A stretch of DNA of 64,000 nucleotides from Escherichia coli (GCF_048403405.1 NZ_CP183129.1), one strand, 5' to 3'; shown: positions 55,042 to 64,000, counted from the stretch's first letter. A program made the numbers and translations. The notes: generated from the sequence alone by a model not told the origin.

Positions 55042-56112
55042 ATGAAGCTGGTTGAACACTACATCATGCGTGGTACGCGCCGTCTGGTGCTGATTATCGT
55101 CGGTTTTCTGATCTTTATTTTCGCCAGCTACTCCGCACAGCGTTATCTGACCGAAGCGGCAAATGGGACATTAGCTCTTGATGTTGTGCTGGATATCGTT
55201 TTCTACAAAGTGCTGATTGCACTGGAGATGTTGTTACCTGTTGGACTGTATGTGTCAGTTGGCGTGACGCTAGGGCAGATGTATACCGATTCGGAAATCA
55301 CAGCTATCTCTGCGGCGGGGGGCAGTCCGGGACGCTTGTACAAAGCCGTTCTTTATCTGGCGATACCGCTAAGTATTTTTGTCACCCTTCTGTCGATGTA
55401 TGGTCGTCCGTGGGCTTATGCGCAGATTTATCAACTGGAGCAACAGTCACAGTCGGAGCTGGATGTTCGCCAGTTGCGGGCAAAGAAATTTAACACTAAC
55501 GATAACGGACGAATGATCCTTTCGCAGACGGTTGATCAGGATAATAATCGCCTGACTGACGCGCTGATTTATACTTCTACTGCCAATCGAACCCGCATTT
55601 TCCGCGCCCGTTCGGTTGATGTGGTTGACCCATCACCTGAGAAACCGACCGTTATGTTGCATAACGGGACCGCCTATCTTCTCGATCATCAGGGGCGTGA
55701 CGACAACGAACAGATCTACCGTAATCTGCAATTACATCTGAATCCGCTGGATCAAAGCCCTAACGTCAAACGCAAAGCAAAATCGGTCACGGAGCTGGCG
55801 CGCTCCGTCTTTCCAGCCGATCATGCCGAACTGCAATGGCGACAAAGCCGTGGCCTGACAGCATTGTTGATGGCGCTGCTGGCCATTTCATTAAGTCGGG
55901 TAAAACCGCGGCAAGGGCGATTTTCAACATTATTGCCACTGACGTTGCTGTTTATTGCCATTTTTTATGGCGGCGACGTCTGCCGTACGCTGGTGGCTAA
56001 CGGCGCGATTCCCCTCATTCCTGGTTTGTGGTTAGTACCCGGACTCATGCTAATGGGCCTGCTGATGCTGGTCGCACGCGACTTCTCTTTGCTGCAGAAA
56101 TTTTCCCGATGA
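55042..56112 (+). CDS. LptF/LptG-family (YjgP/YjgQ) permease, first paralogue
   Basis: 356 aa; N-terminal pattern similar to LptF (YxxRxxxxxxxxxxxxF, TESEIT-like TDSEIT); polytopic. Confidence 0.8.
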   Translation: MKLVEHYIMRGTRRLVLIIVGFLIFIFASYSAQRYLTEAANGTLALDVVLDIVFYKVLIALEMLLPVGLYVSVGVTLGQMYTDSEITAISAAGGSPGRLYKAVLYLAIPLSIFVTLLSMYGRPWAYAQIYQLEQQSQSELDVRQLRAKKFNTNDNGRMILSQTVDQDNNRLTDALIYTSTANRTRIFRARSVDVVDPSPEKPTVMLHNGTAYLLDHQGRDDNEQIYRNLQLHLNPLDQSPNVKRKAKSVTELARSVFPADHAELQWRQSRGLTALLMALLAISLSRVKPRQGRFSTLLPLTLLFIAIFYGGDVCRTLVANGAIPLIPGLWLVPGLMLMGLLMLVARDFSLLQKFSR

Positions 56113-57188
56113 ATGTTTTCAGTCGCTATTTAATCCGTCATCTCTTTCTCGGTTTTGCCGCCGCCGCAGGGCTATTGCTGCCGCTTTTTACCACCTTCAA
56201 CCTGATTAACGAACTGGATGATGTCAGCCCGGGCGGTTATCGCTGGACTCAGGCGGTGCTGGTGGTGCTGATGACCTTACCGCGTACACTGGTCGAACTT
56301 TCGCCGTTTATCGCCTTATTGGGAGGGATTGTTGGCCTGGGGCAGTTATCGAAAAACAGTGAGCTTACCGCCATTCGCAGCACTGGGTTTTCTATCTTCC
56401 GTATTGCACTGGTGGCGCTGGTTGCCGGGATATTGTGGACTGTTTCGTTAGGCGCGATAGATGAGTGGGTGGCGTCGCCATTGCAGCAACAGGCGCTGCA
56501 AATCAAATCGACTGCCACCGCGTTGGGGGAGGACGATGACATTACCGGCAATATGCTTTGGGCCAGGCGCGGTAATGAATTTGTGACGGTGAAATCGCTG
56601 AACGAGCAGGGCCAGCCTGTGGGCGTGGAGATATTTCATTATCGCGACGATCTCTCGCTCGAATCCTACATTTTTGCACGCAGTGCCTCCATTGAAGACG
56701 ACAAAACGTGGATCCTGCATGGTGTGAATCATAAAAAATGGTTGAATGGCAAAGAAACGCTGGAAACATCAGATAATCTTGCCTGGCAATCGGCCTTCAC
56801 CAGTATGAATCTTGAAGAGTTATCGATGCCGGGAAATACTTTTTCTGTCCGTCAACTTAATCATTACATCCATTATTTGCAGGAAACCGGGCAACCCAGC
56901 AGCGAATACCGCCTTGCACTGTGGGAAAAACTGGGACAACCCATCCTGACCCTGGCGATGATTTTGCTGGCTGTGCCGTTTACCTTTAGTGCCCCGCGTT
57001 CGCCTGGGATGGGTAGCCGTCTCGCTGTAGGCGTCATCGTGGGCTTACTCACCTGGATCAGCTATCAAATCATGGTCAATCTGGGGTTGCTATTTGCGTT
57101 GAGCGCACCTGTTACCGCGCTCGGTTTACCGGTAGCGTTTGTGATGATGGCGTTGAGCCTGGTGTATTGGTATGACAGACAACATTAA
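56109..57188 (+). CDS. LptF/LptG-family (YjgP/YjgQ) permease, second paralogue
   Basis: Start set at the ATG at 56109 overlapping the upstream stop (ATGA); about 359 aa; N-terminus MNVFSRYLIRH resembles LptG. Confidence 0.8.
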   Translation: MNVFSRYLIRHLFLGFAAAAGLLLPLFTTFNLINELDDVSPGGYRWTQAVLVVLMTLPRTLVELSPFIALLGGIVGLGQLSKNSELTAIRSTGFSIFRIALVALVAGILWTVSLGAIDEWVASPLQQQALQIKSTATALGEDDDITGNMLWARRGNEFVTVKSLNEQGQPVGVEIFHYRDDLSLESYIFARSASIEDDKTWILHGVNHKKWLNGKETLETSDNLAWQSAFTSMNLEELSMPGNTFSVRQLNHYIHYLQETGQPSSEYRLALWEKLGQPILTLAMILLAVPFTFSAPRSPGMGSRLAVGVIVGLLTWISYQIMVNLGLLFALSAPVTALGLPVAFVMMALSLVYWYDRQH

Positions 57189-57222
57189 ACCCGCCGTGGC
57201 GCAGCGCCACAGCGGGCTCACA

Positions 57223-58395
57223 TTACTGCTTCAGAGTAGCAAATGCCTGAATGATGGCATCGATTTGCTCACGACTGTGGGCAGCGTTTACGCTACAGCG
57301 CAGCAGCGTGATGCCTGCAGGCGCGGCAGGTGGCAGGATAAGATTCACATAAACGCCCAGCGAAATAAGCTCGCGCCAGATGCGTAAACCTTCCTCTTTC
57401 GAACCGATTATTACTGGCACTACCGGGCTAATATGTGAACTTAACTCATAACCCAGTTTTTGCAGACCGTCATACAGATGGTTGGCATTATCCATCAGCT
57501 TTTGCCGCAACTCTGGTTGTGTAGCAATGGTTCTTAACGACGAGCGCACGGTCGCAATGCAGGACGGAGAAGGAGAGGCGGTAAAAATATACGGGCGGCT
57601 GCCGTAGCGCAGCACTTCCATCGCTTCCGAACCGACAGCAAAACCGCCAATCGAGGCCAGACTTTTACTGAAAGTACCAACGATAATATCCACATCATCT
57701 TCAACGCCAACGGCTTCAGCCAGTCCGCGCCCCGTTGCGCCTAACACGCCAAACGAATGCGCTTCATCGACAATCAAATAACCACCGAGACGACGTTTGA
57801 TATCAACAATTTCCGCCAGCGGCGCAACGTCACCGAGCATACTGTAGATGCCTTCAACGATGATAATCGCCTCTTTTGCCCGTTCACCGAGGCGAACCAT
57901 GCGCCGTTCCAGATCTTTAGCATCGTTATGGCGGAAACGAATAATTTCCGCGCCACCGAGAGAACAGGCGTCATAAATACTGGCGTGGCTGTCGGCATCC
58001 AGTAACACCACGGCGTTATGGTCGGCAAGTGCGCTGATGACGCCTAAATTAGCGGTATAACCGGTTGAAAAAACGATAGCGGTAGGGCGATTAAAAAACT
58101 CGGCGATCTCTTTCTCTAACGCCAGATGCGGCGCATAACTGCCGTTTGCCATACGAGAACCGGTGGTGCCGGTGCCTTGGGCCGCTAACGCTGCCTGACC
58201 TTCGGCGATGGCATCATGATTGAAGGTTAATCCGAGATAATTATTGGTCCCGGCCAGAATCACTTTTTTATTGCCGATCCGGCCTTCGGTGGCGGAATAC
58301 ACTCCATCAATACAGGTACCAAACGGCGTTAACCCGTTGTCACTAAATTGCAGTCGCTCGCCAGCAAGACGCGCATATTTATCGTATAGCCCCAT
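57223..58395 (-). CDS. Alpha-oxoamine synthase, serine-palmitoyltransferase-like (PLP-dependent)
   Basis: 390 aa; PLP-lysine motif GTFSKSLASIGGF closely resembles the bacterial serine palmitoyltransferase GTFSKS signature; class I/II aminotransferase fold pattern. Confidence 0.85.
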   Translation of the reverse strand: MGLYDKYARLAGERLQFSDNGLTPFGTCIDGVYSATEGRIGNKKVILAGTNNYLGLTFNHDAIAEGQAALAAQGTGTTGSRMANGSYAPHLALEKEIAEFFNRPTAIVFSTGYTANLGVISALADHNAVVLLDADSHASIYDACSLGGAEIIRFRHNDAKDLERRMVRLGERAKEAIIIVEGIYSMLGDVAPLAEIVDIKRRLGGYLIVDEAHSFGVLGATGRGLAEAVGVEDDVDIIVGTFSKSLASIGGFAVGSEAMEVLRYGSRPYIFTASPSPSCIATVRSSLRTIATQPELRQKLMDNANHLYDGLQKLGYELSSHISPVVPVIIGSKEEGLRIWRELISLGVYVNLILPPAAPAGITLLRCSVNAAHSREQIDAIIQAFATLKQ

Positions 58396-58643
58396 TATTT
58401 ATTCTCCAGCCATGGAAGTAGTGTTTCCATTAATTGCGCAGGGGTTTTGACATCCAGCAGAATATTAATAGGAATGGAAATATCGAATCTGTCTTCCAGC
58501 ATCATTAAGAGATCCATCACTTTGATCGACTCCAGGCCAAGATCGTTGACGAGATCGCTGTCGGGCTTAATTTCCACACCGTTTTCGACCAAATCCTGTA
58601 AACAGGAAAGGATGTAATCCATTACTATTTCACGATTTACCAT
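58395..58643 (-). CDS. Acyl carrier protein
   Basis: 82 aa; phosphopantetheine-attachment motif DLGLESIKVMDL; stop overlaps the synthase start (TAATG). Confidence 0.85.
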   Translation of the reverse strand: MVNREIVMDYILSCLQDLVENGVEIKPDSDLVNDLGLESIKVMDLLMMLEDRFDISIPINILLDVKTPAQLMETLLPWLENK

Positions 58644-58674
58644 AGAAACGTTAACACACCTTTAAACAAGACAA

Positions 58675-59589
58675 TCAAAATAGCCCGTTGCGTAATGCGT
58701 GTTCCAGGCTAATCCCGGGAAACCAATTAATATCTTCAGAAATACGGTTATTACTTGCTGACCAGTCGGCGTGGGTTAATTCACGGATTTTCGAGCGGGT
58801 CAGCATAGGTTCTTTACCCGCCAGACGGCTCAACGCGGTACTGATATCCGCAAGGCAGGTGAGTACCGACAGAGGAATACCAACCATTCGAACGGAACCA
58901 CAACGGGCGTCGGCGGCAAGCTGTCTTACGCGTTGCCAGTCATAGCCGCCGGCGACGCCATCGCATAATTCATAGGTTTGCGTCTGTACAGTTTCGGCGC
59001 TTAACCACTGCCCCACGGCTTGCGCGAAATCGGTGACGTGCAGGAAAGAGAGCTGTGTATCTGGCGCACCAAGTCGTGGCAGCAGGCCGCGCAGCATCCA
59101 GTCAAACAGCGGTTTTAACTCTTTATCGCCGGGACCATACACGGCTGTCGGGCGAAAAATGCCCAGCGTAATTTCGTCAGCCATTGCGGTCAGTCGTTGT
59201 TCGGCGACGTGTTTGGAATTTGCGTACCAGGAGAGTTCGGGATGGCGCGCCGCCAGCGAAGAGATAAACAGAAAACGTTGGCAAAAGCCGCTCTCTTTTG
59301 CCGCTTGCATCAGTCGCAGGCTGCCGTCAACGTTACAGCGGGTAAAAATCTCTTCTTTGTGCCCGCGCACTTGCCCGGCGCAATGGACCACCGCGCTGGC
59401 TCCGGCAACCAGTTCGCTAAGTGAATGAGTATCTTCCAGAGAACCGCGCACCCAGGTGAGATTATCATTGACGTGAGCGCGGGCAGTACGCGTCAATGCG
59501 CGAACGTGAAAGCCGCGGGCGAGCAGGTTATCGATAATATATTTACCGATAAACCCGGTAGCGCCCGTCACCGCGACAGTTTGATTCAT
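58675..59589 (-). CDS. NAD(P)-dependent epimerase/dehydratase-family (extended SDR) reductase
   Basis: 304 aa; Rossmann motif GATGFIG and catalytic YANSK (YxxxK). Confidence 0.85.
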   Translation of the reverse strand: MNQTVAVTGATGFIGKYIIDNLLARGFHVRALTRTARAHVNDNLTWVRGSLEDTHSLSELVAGASAVVHCAGQVRGHKEEIFTRCNVDGSLRLMQAAKESGFCQRFLFISSLAARHPELSWYANSKHVAEQRLTAMADEITLGIFRPTAVYGPGDKELKPLFDWMLRGLLPRLGAPDTQLSFLHVTDFAQAVGQWLSAETVQTQTYELCDGVAGGYDWQRVRQLAADARCGSVRMVGIPLSVLTCLADISTALSRLAGKEPMLTRSKIRELTHADWSASNNRISEDINWFPGISLEHALRNGLF

Positions 59590-61307
59590 GCCAGGGATTC
59601 CTGCACATGAAGGCTTGCAGCATAAGCCTTCTGATAACGTTTTTTCGCTTCCGCACGGGCAGGCTTGCCGGAGGACGTTCGGGGAATACTGTGGGGCGGC
59701 AACAGATCGATAGCCGCGGTCACGCCAAATTCGCTTTGGATCCGTGCTGCCAGCGCGTGGATAAGCTGCCCGCGACGTTCTTCATCGCTGATCCGACACT
59801 GGATCTGCAAAATGATTTTTTCCTGGGCGGTAACAAAAGCAATCGCATCGCCAGAATGAATTTCCGGTTCCTGTTCCGCAATATATTCAATATCCTGCGG
59901 CCAGATATTACGGCCACGAATAATAATCAGATCTTTAATGCGTCCGGTGACATACAGATAACCGTCCAGCAGATAACCGAGGTCGCCGGTGTCTAACCAG
60001 CCCGTCGCGGCAATCTCGTCTTGCGAAACCTGGTCGCCAAAGTAACCGCTCATCAGGCTGGGGCCGGAGATGCAAATATGGCCTACCACACGTTCCGCGA
60101 CAGGTATACCTGCTTCATTGCGGATTTCAATGCCATGTTCCGGCAACGCTTTACCGCAGTTGACGAAAGTCGATACGGCGCGTGTTTCAGCATCCGGCGC
60201 GACGGCTTTGCCCTGATATTCGAGGATGTCGCGATCCACTTCGTTAACCACAACCCCGGAAGCTTCATCAGAGAAGCTGACAGCCAGCGCATTTTCTGCC
60301 AGTCCGTAGCACGGCATGAAAGTTTTATCGTCAAAGTTGACCTGACGGAAACATTCAGCGAATTGATGGAGTTGTTCTGCGGAGATGGGTTCTGCACCAA
60401 TACCAGCGACGCGCCAGCAGGAAAGATCCAGTTCAGCGAGATCTTTTTCATTCACGCGGCGCTGGCACAATTCATAGCCAAACGGCGGCGCAACGGAAAC
60501 GGTGCCGCGATTTTTACTGATCAATTTAAGCCATTGCAGAGGACGCATGGCAAAATCCTGAGTGCGCAAATAATCTACTGAAAGCTGCGTGGCGACGGGG
60601 GTCAGGAGAAAGCCGACCAGTCCCATATCATGGTAGAAAGGCAGCCAGGAGACGCAGCGGTCGCCAGGGCGTAATTTAATGCCATCGTGGCTTATAGCAC
60701 GTAGATTAGCCATCACTTCGCGATGGGTGATAATGACGCCACGGGGAAAACGGGTGCTGCCGGAGGTGTACTGGAGGTAGGCGATATCGTTCGGAACTGG
60801 ACGCTGGAGCGCAACATCGGCTTCCGGTAATGCCTTAAACCAGGCGTGGCTTAAAACATGTAATTCGGGGTTGTTATGCGTAGCGGCATTGACCAGTGGC
60901 AACCACTCATCACCAGTGATAATGGCTGCGGGCTGGCAACTTGCCAGTAAACCCTGCAGTTTGGCGCTCCAGGAATCCCGCTGACCGACGCCCATTGGAA
61001 TCGCCAACGGGACGGCGACTAAGCCGGCATACTGGCAGGAAAAAAAAGCCTCTACGAACCCGCTACTGGTTTCGGCAATCAGCGCCACGCGATCGCCTTT
61101 TTTCAGGTTCAGCGATAACAACCGCTTCGCACCAGCTTCGGCACGCGCTTTTAACGTCTGATATTCCAGTTGATCTTCAAGTTGGCAACGTCTGTCATAA
61201 AAATTCATTCCGGCGCTACTCAGAGCGGCGTAGTCCAAAGCATCAACCAGCGTTGGAAAATCGGCATAGCGCATAGGTAGGGAATGCGTAAAGATTTTAT
61301 TAGACAT
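59586..61307 (-). CDS. Fatty acyl-AMP ligase / acyl-ACP synthetase (AMP-binding superfamily)
   Basis: AMP-binding motif YTSGSTRFPRGV; 4-bp overlap with the downstream reductase gene; start set at the first ATG (61307) because the tracked ORF begins with TTG at 61334; a start at 61274 is also possible. Confidence 0.82.
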   Translation of the reverse strand: MSNKIFTHSLPMRYADFPTLVDALDYAALSSAGMNFYDRRCQLEDQLEYQTLKARAEAGAKRLLSLNLKKGDRVALIAETSSGFVEAFFSCQYAGLVAVPLAIPMGVGQRDSWSAKLQGLLASCQPAAIITGDEWLPLVNAATHNNPELHVLSHAWFKALPEADVALQRPVPNDIAYLQYTSGSTRFPRGVIITHREVMANLRAISHDGIKLRPGDRCVSWLPFYHDMGLVGFLLTPVATQLSVDYLRTQDFAMRPLQWLKLISKNRGTVSVAPPFGYELCQRRVNEKDLAELDLSCWRVAGIGAEPISAEQLHQFAECFRQVNFDDKTFMPCYGLAENALAVSFSDEASGVVVNEVDRDILEYQGKAVAPDAETRAVSTFVNCGKALPEHGIEIRNEAGIPVAERVVGHICISGPSLMSGYFGDQVSQDEIAATGWLDTGDLGYLLDGYLYVTGRIKDLIIIRGRNIWPQDIEYIAEQEPEIHSGDAIAFVTAQEKIILQIQCRISDEERRGQLIHALAARIQSEFGVTAAIDLLPPHSIPRTSSGKPARAEAKKRYQKAYAASLHVQESLA

Positions 61308-61678
61308 ATACACCACGAAAAAATTGGATATCAAAAATAAAATGACAATAATGCGGTGGATTATATAGGCATAAAAGATAAATGAGATAGTATTTTCATC
61401 AGTGTGAAAATGAACATTGATTTAAATAATGAGTTTGAGTTTTTTTGTTTTTATTGTGAATGATATTTAATTTATGAATGTATTAAGAAGAAGCCTTGTC
61501 CGGTCGCCTTAAATCGACAAAAGGCATTGTGGCGCTTCTGTGTAGTCTCTGACCTTATCGTAATCATTAATAAATGCTATTTATTCGTCGTTTGTATTCA
61601 TTGGGTTGATTATTAAGGTGCCGTTCGTTGCTGTTGCAACCTGTTTGTCACCGTTAATTATTTGTTACCCACAGAACT

Positions 61679-62821
61679 ATGGAATGCGATCTGCTGATGA
61701 TTAAAATTGAAAAAGTAATTAATAAAAATGACCTTAAGGCATTTATCGCTTTTCCGTCATCACTTTATCCCGACGATCCAAACTGGATACCCCCTTTATT
61801 CATTGAACGCAACGAGCATTTGTCTGCGAAAAATCCGGGGACGGACCATATCATCTGGCAGGCGTGGGTGGCAAAAAAAGCCGGGCAGATAGTTGGGCGA
61901 ATTACCGCGCAAATCGATACCTTGCACCGTGAGCGTTACGGTGAAGATACCGGTCATTTCGGCATGATTGACGCCATTGATGATCCGCAGGTTTTTGCCG
62001 CGTTGTTTGGCGCAGCGGAAGCGTGGTTGAAGTCACAAGGAGCAAGTAAGATCAGCGGGCCTTTCAGCCTGAATATCAATCAGGAAAGCGGATTACTGAT
62101 TGAAGGTTTCGATACACCACCCTGTGCGATGATGCCGCACGGTAAACCGTGGTATGCCGCGCATATTGAACAATTGGGTTATCACAAAGGCATTGATTTA
62201 CTGGCGTGGTGGATGCAGCGAACCGATCTTACTTTCTCTCCGGCGCTAAAAAAACTGATGGATCAGGTGCGCAAAAAGGTGACCATTCGCTGCATCAATC
62301 GCCAGCGGTTTGCCGAAGAGATGCTGATCCTGCGTGAGATTTTCAACTCTGGCTGGCAGCATAACTGGGGATTTGTGCCGCTTACCGAACATGAGTTCGC
62401 GACTATGGGCGATCAGCTTAAGTACCTGGTGCCGGACGATATGATCTACATCGCCGAGATTGATTCTGCACCCTGTGCGTTTATTGTCGGCTTACCGAAC
62501 ATCAACGAGGCGATTGCCGATCTGAACGGATCGCTCTTTCCCTTCGGCTGGGCAAAATTGCTGTGGCGTTTAAAAGTCAGCGGTGTGCGAACTGCGCGAG
62601 TACCGCTGATGGGCGTGCGGGACGAGTATCAGTTCAGCCGCATCGGCCCGGTGATTGCGTTGTTATTGATTGAAGCCTTACGCGATCCGTTTGCCCGCCG
62701 GAAGATCGATGCGCTGGAGATGTCATGGATCCTCGAAACCAATACAGGCATGAATAACATGCTGGAACGCATTGGGGCGGAGCCGTACAAGCGTTACCGA
62801 TTGTATGAAAAGCAGATTTGA
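61679..62821 (+). CDS. yghO: GNAT-fold N-acyltransferase-like protein YghO, full length
   Basis: 380 aa intact ORF divergent from the ligase operon; GNAT-like assignment from sequence pattern; K-12 carries only a yghO pseudogene as I recall. Confidence 0.7.
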   Translation: MECDLLMIKIEKVINKNDLKAFIAFPSSLYPDDPNWIPPLFIERNEHLSAKNPGTDHIIWQAWVAKKAGQIVGRITAQIDTLHRERYGEDTGHFGMIDAIDDPQVFAALFGAAEAWLKSQGASKISGPFSLNINQESGLLIEGFDTPPCAMMPHGKPWYAAHIEQLGYHKGIDLLAWWMQRTDLTFSPALKKLMDQVRKKVTIRCINRQRFAEEMLILREIFNSGWQHNWGFVPLTEHEFATMGDQLKYLVPDDMIYIAEIDSAPCAFIVGLPNINEAIADLNGSLFPFGWAKLLWRLKVSGVRTARVPLMGVRDEYQFSRIGPVIALLLIEALRDPFARRKIDALEMSWILETNTGMNNMLERIGAEPYKRYRLYEKQI

Positions 62822-62827
62822 TGGCAG

Positions 62828-63592
62828 TCACCCCTGCTTCATCTCCAGCGGCACCGCCGAGCGAATCAAATGGTGGCCTTCCAGCTCGATATCGTGGAGA
62901 TTCTTTTTCACGGTCCGCACATGATCGCGTGCTGCGCGCTGGGCGACGTGCGGCAGACGCTGCAACACCGCGTTGTAGATCCGTGCATGCTGGCGATCGA
63001 TCTGCTTTTTTTGCTGTGGTCGATGGTAGAGATTATTTACGCTGGCAAACACTGAATTAAACATCAGATCGGTCAATGATTGCAGCGTAAACACCAGCAC
63101 CTGATTGTGGGAAGCCTGACAAATGGCGAGATGGAAAGCGTGATCCAACTGCGCATGTTCGATCAGCGAAATCTCTTTGTTGTTCTCACTGGCGGCGAGC
63201 ATTTTTTCATAACAGCGGGTTATCACAACAAAATCAGCCTGCGTTCCCAGCGTTGCCGCCAGCCTTGCCGATTCGCCCTCCAGCAATGCGCGAACGTCGA
63301 GCAGATCATACAGCGTTCGCGGCTGCGTACTGAACAGATGGATCAGCGGGCTGGTGTCCTGCACCCGATTAAGCCGTGCGACACGAGAATCGCGACCCTG
63401 CGCCGTTTCAATAATCCCGCGCCCGCGCAGCACGGTCAGCCCTTCACGCAGTGCGGAGCGTGAGAAGCCGAGCTTTTCACACAGTCGACGTTCCGAGGGA
63501 AGCGGCTGACCGACCTTCAGTACGCCGTCGATAATTAACCGTTCGATACTCTCTGCAACCACTTCGCAAATAGGGCGACGTTCATCTTTCAT
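62828..63592 (-). CDS. glcC: Glycolate operon activator GlcC (GntR/FadR family)
   Basis: Start set at MKDERRPICEVV, giving 254 aa; N-terminal GntR helix-turn-helix. Confidence 0.93.
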   Translation of the reverse strand: MKDERRPICEVVAESIERLIIDGVLKVGQPLPSERRLCEKLGFSRSALREGLTVLRGRGIIETAQGRDSRVARLNRVQDTSPLIHLFSTQPRTLYDLLDVRALLEGESARLAATLGTQADFVVITRCYEKMLAASENNKEISLIEHAQLDHAFHLAICQASHNQVLVFTLQSLTDLMFNSVFASVNNLYHRPQQKKQIDRQHARIYNAVLQRLPHVAQRAARDHVRTVKKNLHDIELEGHHLIRSAVPLEMKQG

Positions 63593-63842
63593 TCCCGGAC
63601 CTCGTGCACAGGTAGGACCAATTTTTCTGTTCTTAACTCGCAAAACACGCACATCACGTAAGTGATTACGTTACATCAATTTAACATTAAGTTAACCAAG
63701 GCAAGGTCACAGAGCTGGAAAAAAAATGGTCTGACCGGTAGCTAAAGAGATAGACGAAAACGAAAAGCCCGCTTAATAACTGTTCACAGAAGCAGCGCGC
63801 AAAAATCAGCTGCCACACAACACAACAAAGCGAAGCCTACTC

Positions 63843-64000
63843 ATGAGCATCTTGTACGAAGAGCGTCTTGATGGCGCTTTACCCGATGTCGACCGCACAT
63901 CGGTACTGATGGCACTGCGTGAGCATGTCCCTGGACTGGAGATCCTGCATACCGATGAGGAGATCATTCCTTACGAGTGTGATGGGTTGAGCGCGTATCG
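63843..64000 (+). CDS. glcD: Glycolate oxidase subunit GlcD, N-terminal fragment (continues beyond the window)
   Basis: ATG at 63843 followed by MSILYEERLDGALPDVDRTSVLMALREHVPGLEILHTDEEIIPYECDGLSAY..., open to the window end; divergent from glcC. Confidence 0.88.
   Translation, partial: MSILYEERLDGALPDVDRTSVLMALREHVPGLEILHTDEEIIPYECDGLSAY

Follow-up and report, generated by a model that had tools for sequence, protein, structure and literature searches.

Sphingolipids have been demonstrated in Caulobacter crescentus but not in Escherichia coli. The Caulobacter genes are CC_1162-CC_1165 and CC_1154, with acpR directly upstream of spt, and the same locus holds the LptF and LptG paralogues lptF2 and lptG2 (CC_1156/1155). 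A stretch of 64,000 nucleotides of E. coli DNA (GCF_048403405.1, NZ_CP183129.1), referred to here as the window and 100% identical to strain MS 69-1, has the same five gene families, the same placement of acpR and its own pair of LptF and LptG paralogues. The five genes are spt for a serine palmitoyltransferase (SPT), acpR for a dedicated acyl carrier protein (ACP), cerR (also epi) for a reductase of the extended short-chain dehydrogenase/reductase (SDR) type, aasR for an acyl-AcpR synthetase, and yghO for a predicted acyltransferase orthologous to CC_1154, the bacterial ceramide synthase (bCerS, also Aca). Together they very probably encode the proteobacterial ('rhodobacterial') dihydroceramide pathway. 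A sequence-only reading of the window had already recognized a five-part set of the Caulobacter type, and the SPT models, the catalytic residues, the tandem-GNAT fold, the synteny across proteobacterial classes and the literature all agree with it. The two loci differ in their remaining genes. Caulobacter has LptC2 and the head-group genes CpgA-D, which comprise a ceramide kinase of the DAGK/LCB5 type and others, whereas E. coli has yghQRST, a CHAD-fold protein and a YtfJ paralogue instead, and neither a DAGK-type kinase nor lptC2 is present in the window.

The closest described relative is E. coli BL21(DE3), in which ECD_02850-ECD_02854 (yghO/aca, aasR, epi, acpR, spt) form the same locus, with the gene order and the neighbours found in the window. 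Padilla-Gómez et al. (2022, Front Microbiol 13:961041; PMC9386255) cloned ECD_02851 (aasR), ECD_02853 (acpR) and ECD_02854 (spt) from this strain. AasR, AcpR and Spt of BL21(DE3) together yield 3-oxo-sphinganine, and extracts containing the E. coli SPT convert L-[14C]serine and palmitoyl-AcpR (PMC9386255). The same study names ECD_02852 as the orthologue of the Caulobacter reductase and yghO as that of the Caulobacter N-acyltransferase, and reports the clustering of all five genes only in Caulobacter and E. coli BL21. It also notes an SPT of this subgroup in E. coli B strains and cites the 2010 and 2019 reviews by Geiger and colleagues for the subgroups. In RefSeq, the gene carries the label 'spt: serine palmitoyltransferase' in E. 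coli genomes. The five-gene ceramide locus of E. coli is thus already known, published and annotated. The sequence-only reading had called the pathway uncharacterized, which does not stand, as functional tests exist for three of the five E. coli proteins, all five were assigned as orthologues in 2022, and RefSeq names spt. The proteins of the window are allelic to those of BL21(DE3), with three substitutions in Spt, none in AcpR, nine in the reductase and ten in AasR.

The five biosynthetic proteins

Judged by its sequence, the synthase is of the SPT type and is neither BioF nor Kbl. Spt scores 598.2 bits against NF047599 (SerpalmtaseBetaP; cutoff 500), the NCBI curated equivalog in NCBIfam for the beta-proteobacterial-type or rhodobacterial SPT. 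The rival models all stay below their cutoffs, with 334.1 of 426.45 bits for bioF (TIGR00858), 297.6 of 460 for Kbl (NF005394), 221 of 428 for the CqsA type, and 220 of 339 for 5-aminolevulinate synthase (ALAS). TIGR01822, a test of membership in the BioF/Kbl group, gives 249.2 bits, short of its cutoff of 493. The top PDB match is the SPT of Sphingomonas paucimobilis (2jg2, E 2.7e-111, residues 3-385), followed in order by Sphingobacterium SPT (1.6e-77), cysteate acyltransferase (6e-60), Kbl (5.5e-59), BioF (1.4e-50), ALAS and CqsA (7e-35). Spt has the superfamily and the chemistry of the lysine that binds pyridoxal phosphate (PLP) in common with BioF, Kbl, ALAS and CqsA, but lies far closer to SPT in this search. 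The call made by the sequence-only reading, SPT type rather than BioF or Kbl, is therefore upheld by the passed equivalog, the failed rival models and the PDB ranking. Spt is 99.2% identical to the assayed enzyme of BL21(DE3).

In common with the SPTs of S. paucimobilis and S. wittichii (PDB 2jg2, 2x8u), Spt is a fold-type I PLP enzyme and keeps the catalytic set. Pairwise alignment matches its residues H137, D210, H213, K244 and R366 with His159, Asp231, His234, Lys265 and Arg390 of 2jg2. The PLP-lysine motif GTFSKSLASIGGF begins at residue 240, and the PLP lysine is K244. Residue 354 is Leu where S. paucimobilis SPT has Arg378, which contacts the serine carboxylate in that enzyme. Each of the 42 cluster-linked Spts extracted from other genomes has L, I, V or F there. 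The arginine is therefore a peculiarity of Sphingomonas, and the leucine does not mark a change of specificity. The E. coli enzyme also differs from that of Sphingomonas in favouring acyl-AcpR over acyl-CoA (PMC9386255). A dedicated acp gene lies directly upstream of spt in the window, and the same is true of 37 of the 39 spt-bearing loci.

AcpR gives weak but consistent matches to ACP models, none of which reaches the curated cutoff, as is expected of a divergent, specialized ACP. The motif DLGLESI stands at residue 34, with Ser39 as the phosphopantetheine serine, and the PP-binding domain PF00550 is found on the AcpR orthologues of Serratia and Erwinia. AcpR is 100% identical to ECD_02853 of BL21(DE3), which is labelled by beta-[3H]alanine and hence carries phosphopantetheine (PMC9386255). 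The ligase AasR scores 873.9 bits against the fatty acyl-AMP ligase (FAAL) model NF006624 (cutoff 600), has its AMP-binding motif YTSGSTRFPRGV at residue 169, and is 98.2% identical to ECD_02851. The published work obtained 3-oxo-sphinganine with the E. coli AasR only when the E. coli AcpR was also present, and the pairing of the two in vivo was deduced from this; acylation of the cognate AcpR by AasR in vitro was reported for the Caulobacter enzyme only (PMC9386255).

The reductase has the two SDR motifs, GATGFIG at residue 9 (GxxGxxG) and YANSK at residue 122 (YxxxK). No NCBIfam model is passed; HpnA- and OleD-type reductases come nearest, still below cutoff. By sequence, its best matches in PDB are the NAD-dependent epimerase/dehydratase 9g83_P, an oxidoreductase, and NDUFA9 subunits of complex I. 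The protein is 97.0% identical to its BL21(DE3) orthologue ECD_02852, and the E. coli reductase shares 34% identity with Caulobacter CC_1164 (E 7e-38; PMC9386255).

Relatives of YghO number 6,495 among those collected, and 83 were aligned for an AlphaFold (AF2) model, which has a pLDDT of 96.3. A Foldseek search of the model against PDB finds tandem-GNAT proteins as the best matches (E 2e-15, TM 0.56-0.62), and the remaining matches among the 50 listed are GNAT-related families such as MshD, Eis and FemX. YghO has two GNAT-like halves in common with the known tandem GNATs (the clavulanate-pathway protein 2wpw/2wpx, MAB_4324, MshD, Eis and FemX), but shares just 9-14% sequence identity with them and lacks the Pfam GNAT match, although a few of its orthologues bear PF00583. 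The description of YghO as GNAT-like in the sequence-only reading thus finds no backing in the sequence profiles of Pfam, NCBIfam and PDB, and is backed by the modelled fold. At the level of the predicted fold, the assignment of YghO as a tandem-GNAT acyltransferase holds. It presumably acts on a long-chain base, and not on a sugar, a thiol or an aminoglycoside. YghO is 46% identical over residues 8-380 to the homologue in the sphingolipid locus of a metagenome-assembled genome (MAG) of Caulobacterales, and 44% identical to CC_1154, with 98% coverage and an E-value of 1e-107 (PMC9386255). The YghO/bCerS family also has fused members: P0121, P0134 and P0203 are, respectively, a protein of 784 amino acids with two YghO-like stretches, one of 630 that bears an additional domain of about 260 at its N-terminus, and one of 940 with a long C-terminal extension.

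Synteny, distribution and decay

A genome scan with an alignment of 17 YghO sequences, limited to one genome per species, yields 80 loci from alpha-, beta-, gamma- and delta-proteobacteria. C. crescentus is not among them. The window proteins were placed on these loci by tblastn. Within 10 kb of the YghO homologue, spt is found in 39 of the 80 loci, acpR in 37, cerR in 39, aasR in 38, lptF2 in 42 and lptG2 in 49. Full 10-kb flanks are available for 58 loci; 55 of these have at least one of spt, cerR, aasR, lptF2 and lptG2, and 29 have spt, cerR and aasR together. This suggests that YghO is a sphingolipid-locus gene wherever it is present. The sequence-only reading had named the possibility that YghO is an unrelated enzyme, and the linkage in 55 of 58 loci answers it as far as computation allows.

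The proteins of the Caulobacterales MAG locus are 46% (bCerS), 51% (Spt), 41% (AcpR), 36% (CerR) and 43% (AasR) identical to those of the window. These values are close to the published identities between E. coli and C. crescentus, which are 44, 53, 41, 34 and 42% in the same order (PMC9386255). Nearer to E. coli, the genes of the spt locus are syntenic and show 57-88% protein identity in Serratia, Erwinia, Hafnia, Pluralibacter, Pseudocitrobacter, Rosenbergiella and Mangrovibacter, and in the closest Pseudomonas locus.

In E. coli itself, at least 80% of the segment 57100-62900 (spt to yghO) is carried by 4064 of 5426 complete genomes, or about 75%, and at least 80% of the yghQ-lptG2 block by 4091. 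Most copies are 95-99% identical at the DNA level, and RefSeq calls coding sequences (CDSs) in those listed. The K-12-type chromosome (L003, 6738-8967) lacks the CHAD-like gene, ytfJ2, lptF2, lptG2, spt, acpR, cerR and aasR; an IS5 stands in their place, between yghO and a yghQ that is cut short at its C-terminus. Its yghO is an intact CDS of 378 amino acids in RefSeq. The sequence-only reading had described K-12 as retaining only decayed remnants here, with yghO as a pseudogene; the loss at the locus is confirmed by IS5, the truncated yghQ and the deleted interval, and the pseudogene is not.

Another form of decay is seen in strain HS-02 (L085, 1131-8934). Frameshifts or internal stops occur in yghQ, ytfJ2, both lpt paralogues, spt, the reductase gene and aasR. 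Only a short fragment of the CHAD-like gene is left, no acpR is annotated, and the reductase gene is annotated as a hypothetical protein. The block is about 85% identical to the window, and the flanking genes yghR, yghS, yghO and glcC are intact. The joint decay from yghQ to aasR fits with the block being one functional unit.

Proposed pathway and competing explanations

In the proposed pathway, a free long-chain fatty acid is adenylated by AasR, and the same enzyme moves the acyl group onto the phosphopantetheine arm at Ser39 of AcpR. Spt, with PLP on Lys244, then converts L-serine and acyl-AcpR into 3-oxo-sphinganine and CO2. These three steps have been demonstrated by experiment with proteins of BL21(DE3) whose identity to the window proteins is 98-100%. 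Orthology, fold and synteny suggest that YghO would supply the second, amide-linked acyl chain and that the SDR would form dihydroceramide by reduction of the 3-keto group; published accounts disagree on whether acylation or reduction comes first. By analogy with Caulobacter, LptF2 and LptG2, probably with the housekeeping ATPase LptB, would draw the lipid out of the inner membrane for delivery to the outer one.

Several points weigh against the assignment of the dihydroceramide pathway. The literature searched describes no sphingolipid from a wild-type E. coli, which is not proof of absence. BL21(DE3) has the whole locus and gives no 3-oxo-sphinganine with empty vectors or with over-expression of SPT alone, and the product of the E. 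coli trio was identified by thin-layer chromatography co-migration only (PMC9386255). The reductase begins with MNQTVAVTGATGFIG and has its Rossmann motif at residue 9, which leaves no room for a cleavable signal peptide, while Caulobacter CerR is reported to be periplasmic. YghO has no sequence match in Pfam, NCBIfam or PDB to any named family. Finally, the comparison with the genetically validated Caulobacter proteins is made through the published table and the Caulobacterales MAG. As BL21(DE3) forms no product without added acpR and aasR, the chromosomal copies of these two genes appear not to be effectively expressed in LB at 30 °C, and the chromosomal operon seems to be silent or weakly expressed in standard laboratory culture.

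The lack of a detectable product from the BL21(DE3) chromosomal copy (PMC9386255) also fits an explanation in which the locus is biochemically competent, and still intact in sequence in many strains, but is a physiologically silent, decaying relic that is being lost piecemeal. Losses of this kind do occur: an IS5-associated deletion has removed the K-12-type locus from the C-terminus of yghQ through aasR, HS-02 has accumulated multiple frameshifts and stops from yghQ to aasR between intact flanks, and about a quarter of the complete genomes lack 80% or more of the block. The relic is nevertheless unlikely. The spt-yghO and yghQ-lptG2 segments are kept at the 80% level by 4064 and 4091 of the 5426 genomes, mostly with 95-99% identity, and the 57-88% protein identity with conserved synteny across Enterobacterales genera implies long-term purifying selection. 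An operon that is silent in LB may still be active in the host or in the environment.

The remaining alternatives concern the substrate and the identity of the synthase. Spt could use alanine, glycine or cysteate in vivo, and the product would then be a deoxy-sphingoid, a sulfonolipid or another N-acyl amino-lipid. SPTs are known to take alanine and glycine with low efficiency (PMC10196870), the E. coli enzyme has Leu for Arg378, and cysteate acyltransferase is the next PDB family after the SPTs. The last match reaches only 207 bits, however, compared with 376 bits for SPT; the Arg378 site is hydrophobic in all 42 linked Spts, the SPT equivalog is passed, and extracts with the E. coli SPT put L-[14C]serine into a 3-oxo-sphinganine-like product (PMC9386255). 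Use of a non-serine substrate is thus very improbable. Still less credible, to the point of being negligible, is a synthase of the BioF, Kbl or CqsA type in a cluster that makes a biotin precursor, aminoacetone or a quorum-sensing hydroxyketone. The common superfamily and the sub-threshold model matches speak for it, but all the rival models stay below cutoff where the SPT model is passed, and the PDB ranking agrees. The context of dedicated ACP, FAAL, GNAT and Lpt paralogues contradicts it, as does the published assay (PMC9386255). This identity was rejected on the profile cutoffs, the PDB ranking and the SPT assay.

According to textbooks, the membranes of E. coli hold only phosphatidylethanolamine, phosphatidylglycerol, cardiolipin and lipopolysaccharide (LPS). 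With a ceramide pathway and a dedicated Lpt-type exporter in about three quarters of the complete genomes, this list may fail for most natural isolates, and the strain behind the textbook view, K-12, carries a natural deletion here. Sphingolipid enzymes are usually expressed in BL21(DE3), which has its own spt, acpR, aasR, cerR and bCerS genes. Gut bacterial sphingolipids are known immune modulators, so a source within the Enterobacterales would be relevant.

Layout of the locus and neighbouring genes

The open reading frame (ORF) listing of the window shows four closely packed minus-strand genes and the divergent plus-strand yghO (Table 1). Gene order, strands and coordinates agree with the sequence-only reading, and a motif search of the proteins recovered every motif it had given (GTFSKSLASIGGF, DLGLESI, GATGFIG, YANSK and YTSGSTRFPRGV). 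The exception is the start of the ligase, which it had placed at the ATG at 61307, whereas RefSeq starts the protein of 562 amino acids at 61274. This ATG is in frame and upstream of the RefSeq start, and the longest aasR ORF extends further, from 59586 to a TTG at 61334. Chance ORFs are excluded by the profile scores of Spt (598 bits, NF047599) and the ligase (874 bits, NF006624).

Table 1. Features of the sphingolipid locus and its neighbours, in positions of the window (aa, amino acids)
Feature	Position	Strand	Description
spt	57223-58395	-	serine palmitoyltransferase, PLP-dependent alpha-oxoamine synthase, 390 aa; K244 codon 57664-57666
acpR	58395-58643	-	dedicated acyl carrier protein, 82 aa; Ser39 codon 58527-58529
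cerR/epi	58675-59589	-	extended-SDR (NDUFA9-like) reductase, 304 aa
aasR	59586-61274	-	fatty acyl-AMP ligase family acyl-AcpR synthetase, 562 aa (RefSeq start)
intergenic aasR/yghO	61275-61678		AT-rich, divergent, 404 bp; presumed promoters of both units
yghO	61679-62821	+	predicted tandem-GNAT acyltransferase, 380 aa; bCerS/Aca (CC_1154) orthologue
hairpin	57186-57220		16-bp stem, GC-rich, 10 of 16 pairs G-C; likely bidirectional terminator
lptF2	55042-56112	+	LptF paralogue, 356 aa; TIGR04407 318 bits
lptG2	56109-57188	+	LptG paralogue, 359 aa (RefSeq start); TIGR04408 303 bits
ytfJ2	54448-55011	+	YtfJ-family, predicted N-terminal signal peptide, 187 aa; TIGR01626 216 bits
hyp274	53615-54439	+	CHAD-fold all-helical protein, 274 aa
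yghQ	52266-53615	+	MOP/Polysacc_synt flippase-like membrane protein, 449 aa; weak MOP flippase matches
yghR	51462-52220	+	P-loop, thymidylate-kinase-like
yghS	50717-51430	+	P-loop, thymidylate-kinase-like
yghT	49851-50543	-	P-loop, thymidylate-kinase-like

The spt and acpR genes have one base in common at their junction (TAATG), and aasR overlaps the reductase gene by four bases. The gap between aasR and yghO has a GC content of 0.40-0.44, compared with about 0.52-0.54 within the genes. A scan for promoter consensus sequences, including this gap, gives a count not above the shuffle expectation, and the hairpin scan for terminators as a whole gives a count no higher than in shuffles. The hairpin of Table 1 sits in the 34-base space between the convergent stops of lptG2 and spt and covers three bases of the lptG2 stop. 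No Rfam match is found at E <= 0.1 over 49000-64000.

The pair lptF2 and lptG2, which overlap by four bases, is adjacent to spt. LptF2 matches 6mhu_F, presumably the canonical LptF chain of E. coli, with 94 bits, and 5x5y_F, which we take to be P. aeruginosa LptF, with 114 bits. The score of only 94 bits indicates an old paralogue that is distinct from the housekeeping pair. In Caulobacter, LptF2 and LptG2 are required for sphingolipid export, are needed when sphingolipids are made, and bind LptB (10.64898/2026.04.12.717747). Fig. 2B of the same 2026 preprint draws the sphingolipid operons of E. coli UTI89 beside those of Caulobacter and S. wittichii. RefSeq names the sphingolipid-locus paralogues lptF and lptG ('LPS export ABC transporter permease'), as it does the housekeeping genes, and the shared names can mislead analyses of LPS transport.

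The other side of the lpt pair holds the accessory genes. YghQ orthologues bear PF01943 and PF13440. YghR, YghS and YghT are paralogues with a mutual identity of 34-44% and the invariant consensus GxDGxGK(S/T)T, DR(Y/F)P(Q/H) and RKPDH. Their family profile matches thymidylate kinases in PDB (E 3e-7), and in Pfam there are only weak matches to AAA and Thymidylate_kin. The RefSeq label 'dTMP kinase' on yghS and yghT is probably an over-annotation. The protein of 274 amino acids has 343 detectable relatives, those listed being almost all from Enterobacterales, and its model has a pLDDT of 92; Pfam does not recognize this CHAD-fold protein, and no family match was found. Two roles proposed for these genes were rejected. 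CpgB of Caulobacter is a ceramide kinase with a DAGK/LCB5 domain, and YghR, YghS and YghT, being P-loop and thymidylate-kinase-like, are not of that type. A defence system of P-loop and unknown genes was considered as well, and PADLOC gave trivial P-loop matches only.

The accessory genes are linked to the sphingolipid locus in other Enterobacterales. In Serratia and Erwinia, yghT, yghS, yghR, yghQ and the gene for the 274-residue protein abut spt directly, with no lpt pair between them. The YtfJ gene follows the accessory genes in Erwinia, and the Serratia locus ends before that position. At least four of the six accessory genes lie within 10 kb in 7 of 11 close, Enterobacterales-type loci, with varying gene order. 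In the scan of 80 loci, they are absent from the alpha-proteobacterial loci and nearly absent from the beta-proteobacterial ones. Outside the Enterobacterales, two clear genes of the yghR/yghS type (53-55% identity) occur in one locus only, that of a Betaproteobacteria MAG (L029, 2464-11119), where a weak match to yghQ (28%) also lies between spt and the homologue of bCerS. This indicates that the accessory module is not strictly enterobacterial.

In the literature searched, no paper connects sphingolipids with yghQRST, the CHAD-like protein or the YtfJ paralogue. The accessory genes are a candidate lineage-specific module for head-group addition or flipping, and they are the sole part of the locus where novelty may remain. 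A wider proposal, which is tentative and more doubtful than probable, regards the ceramide operon of Enterobacterales as half of a larger conserved unit, whose accessory half replaces CpgA-D. Under this proposal, E. coli would make a new, probably phosphorylated complex sphingolipid under some conditions, which would be flipped by YghQ and exported by LptB-LptF2-LptG2.

The gene that follows yghO in the window is glcC. In Serratia liquefaciens (L001, 11354-11716) and Erwinia billingiae (L002, 11323-11682), the position directly downstream of yghO is held by a small gene for a DgkA-type lipid kinase (PF01219) of 119-120 amino acids.

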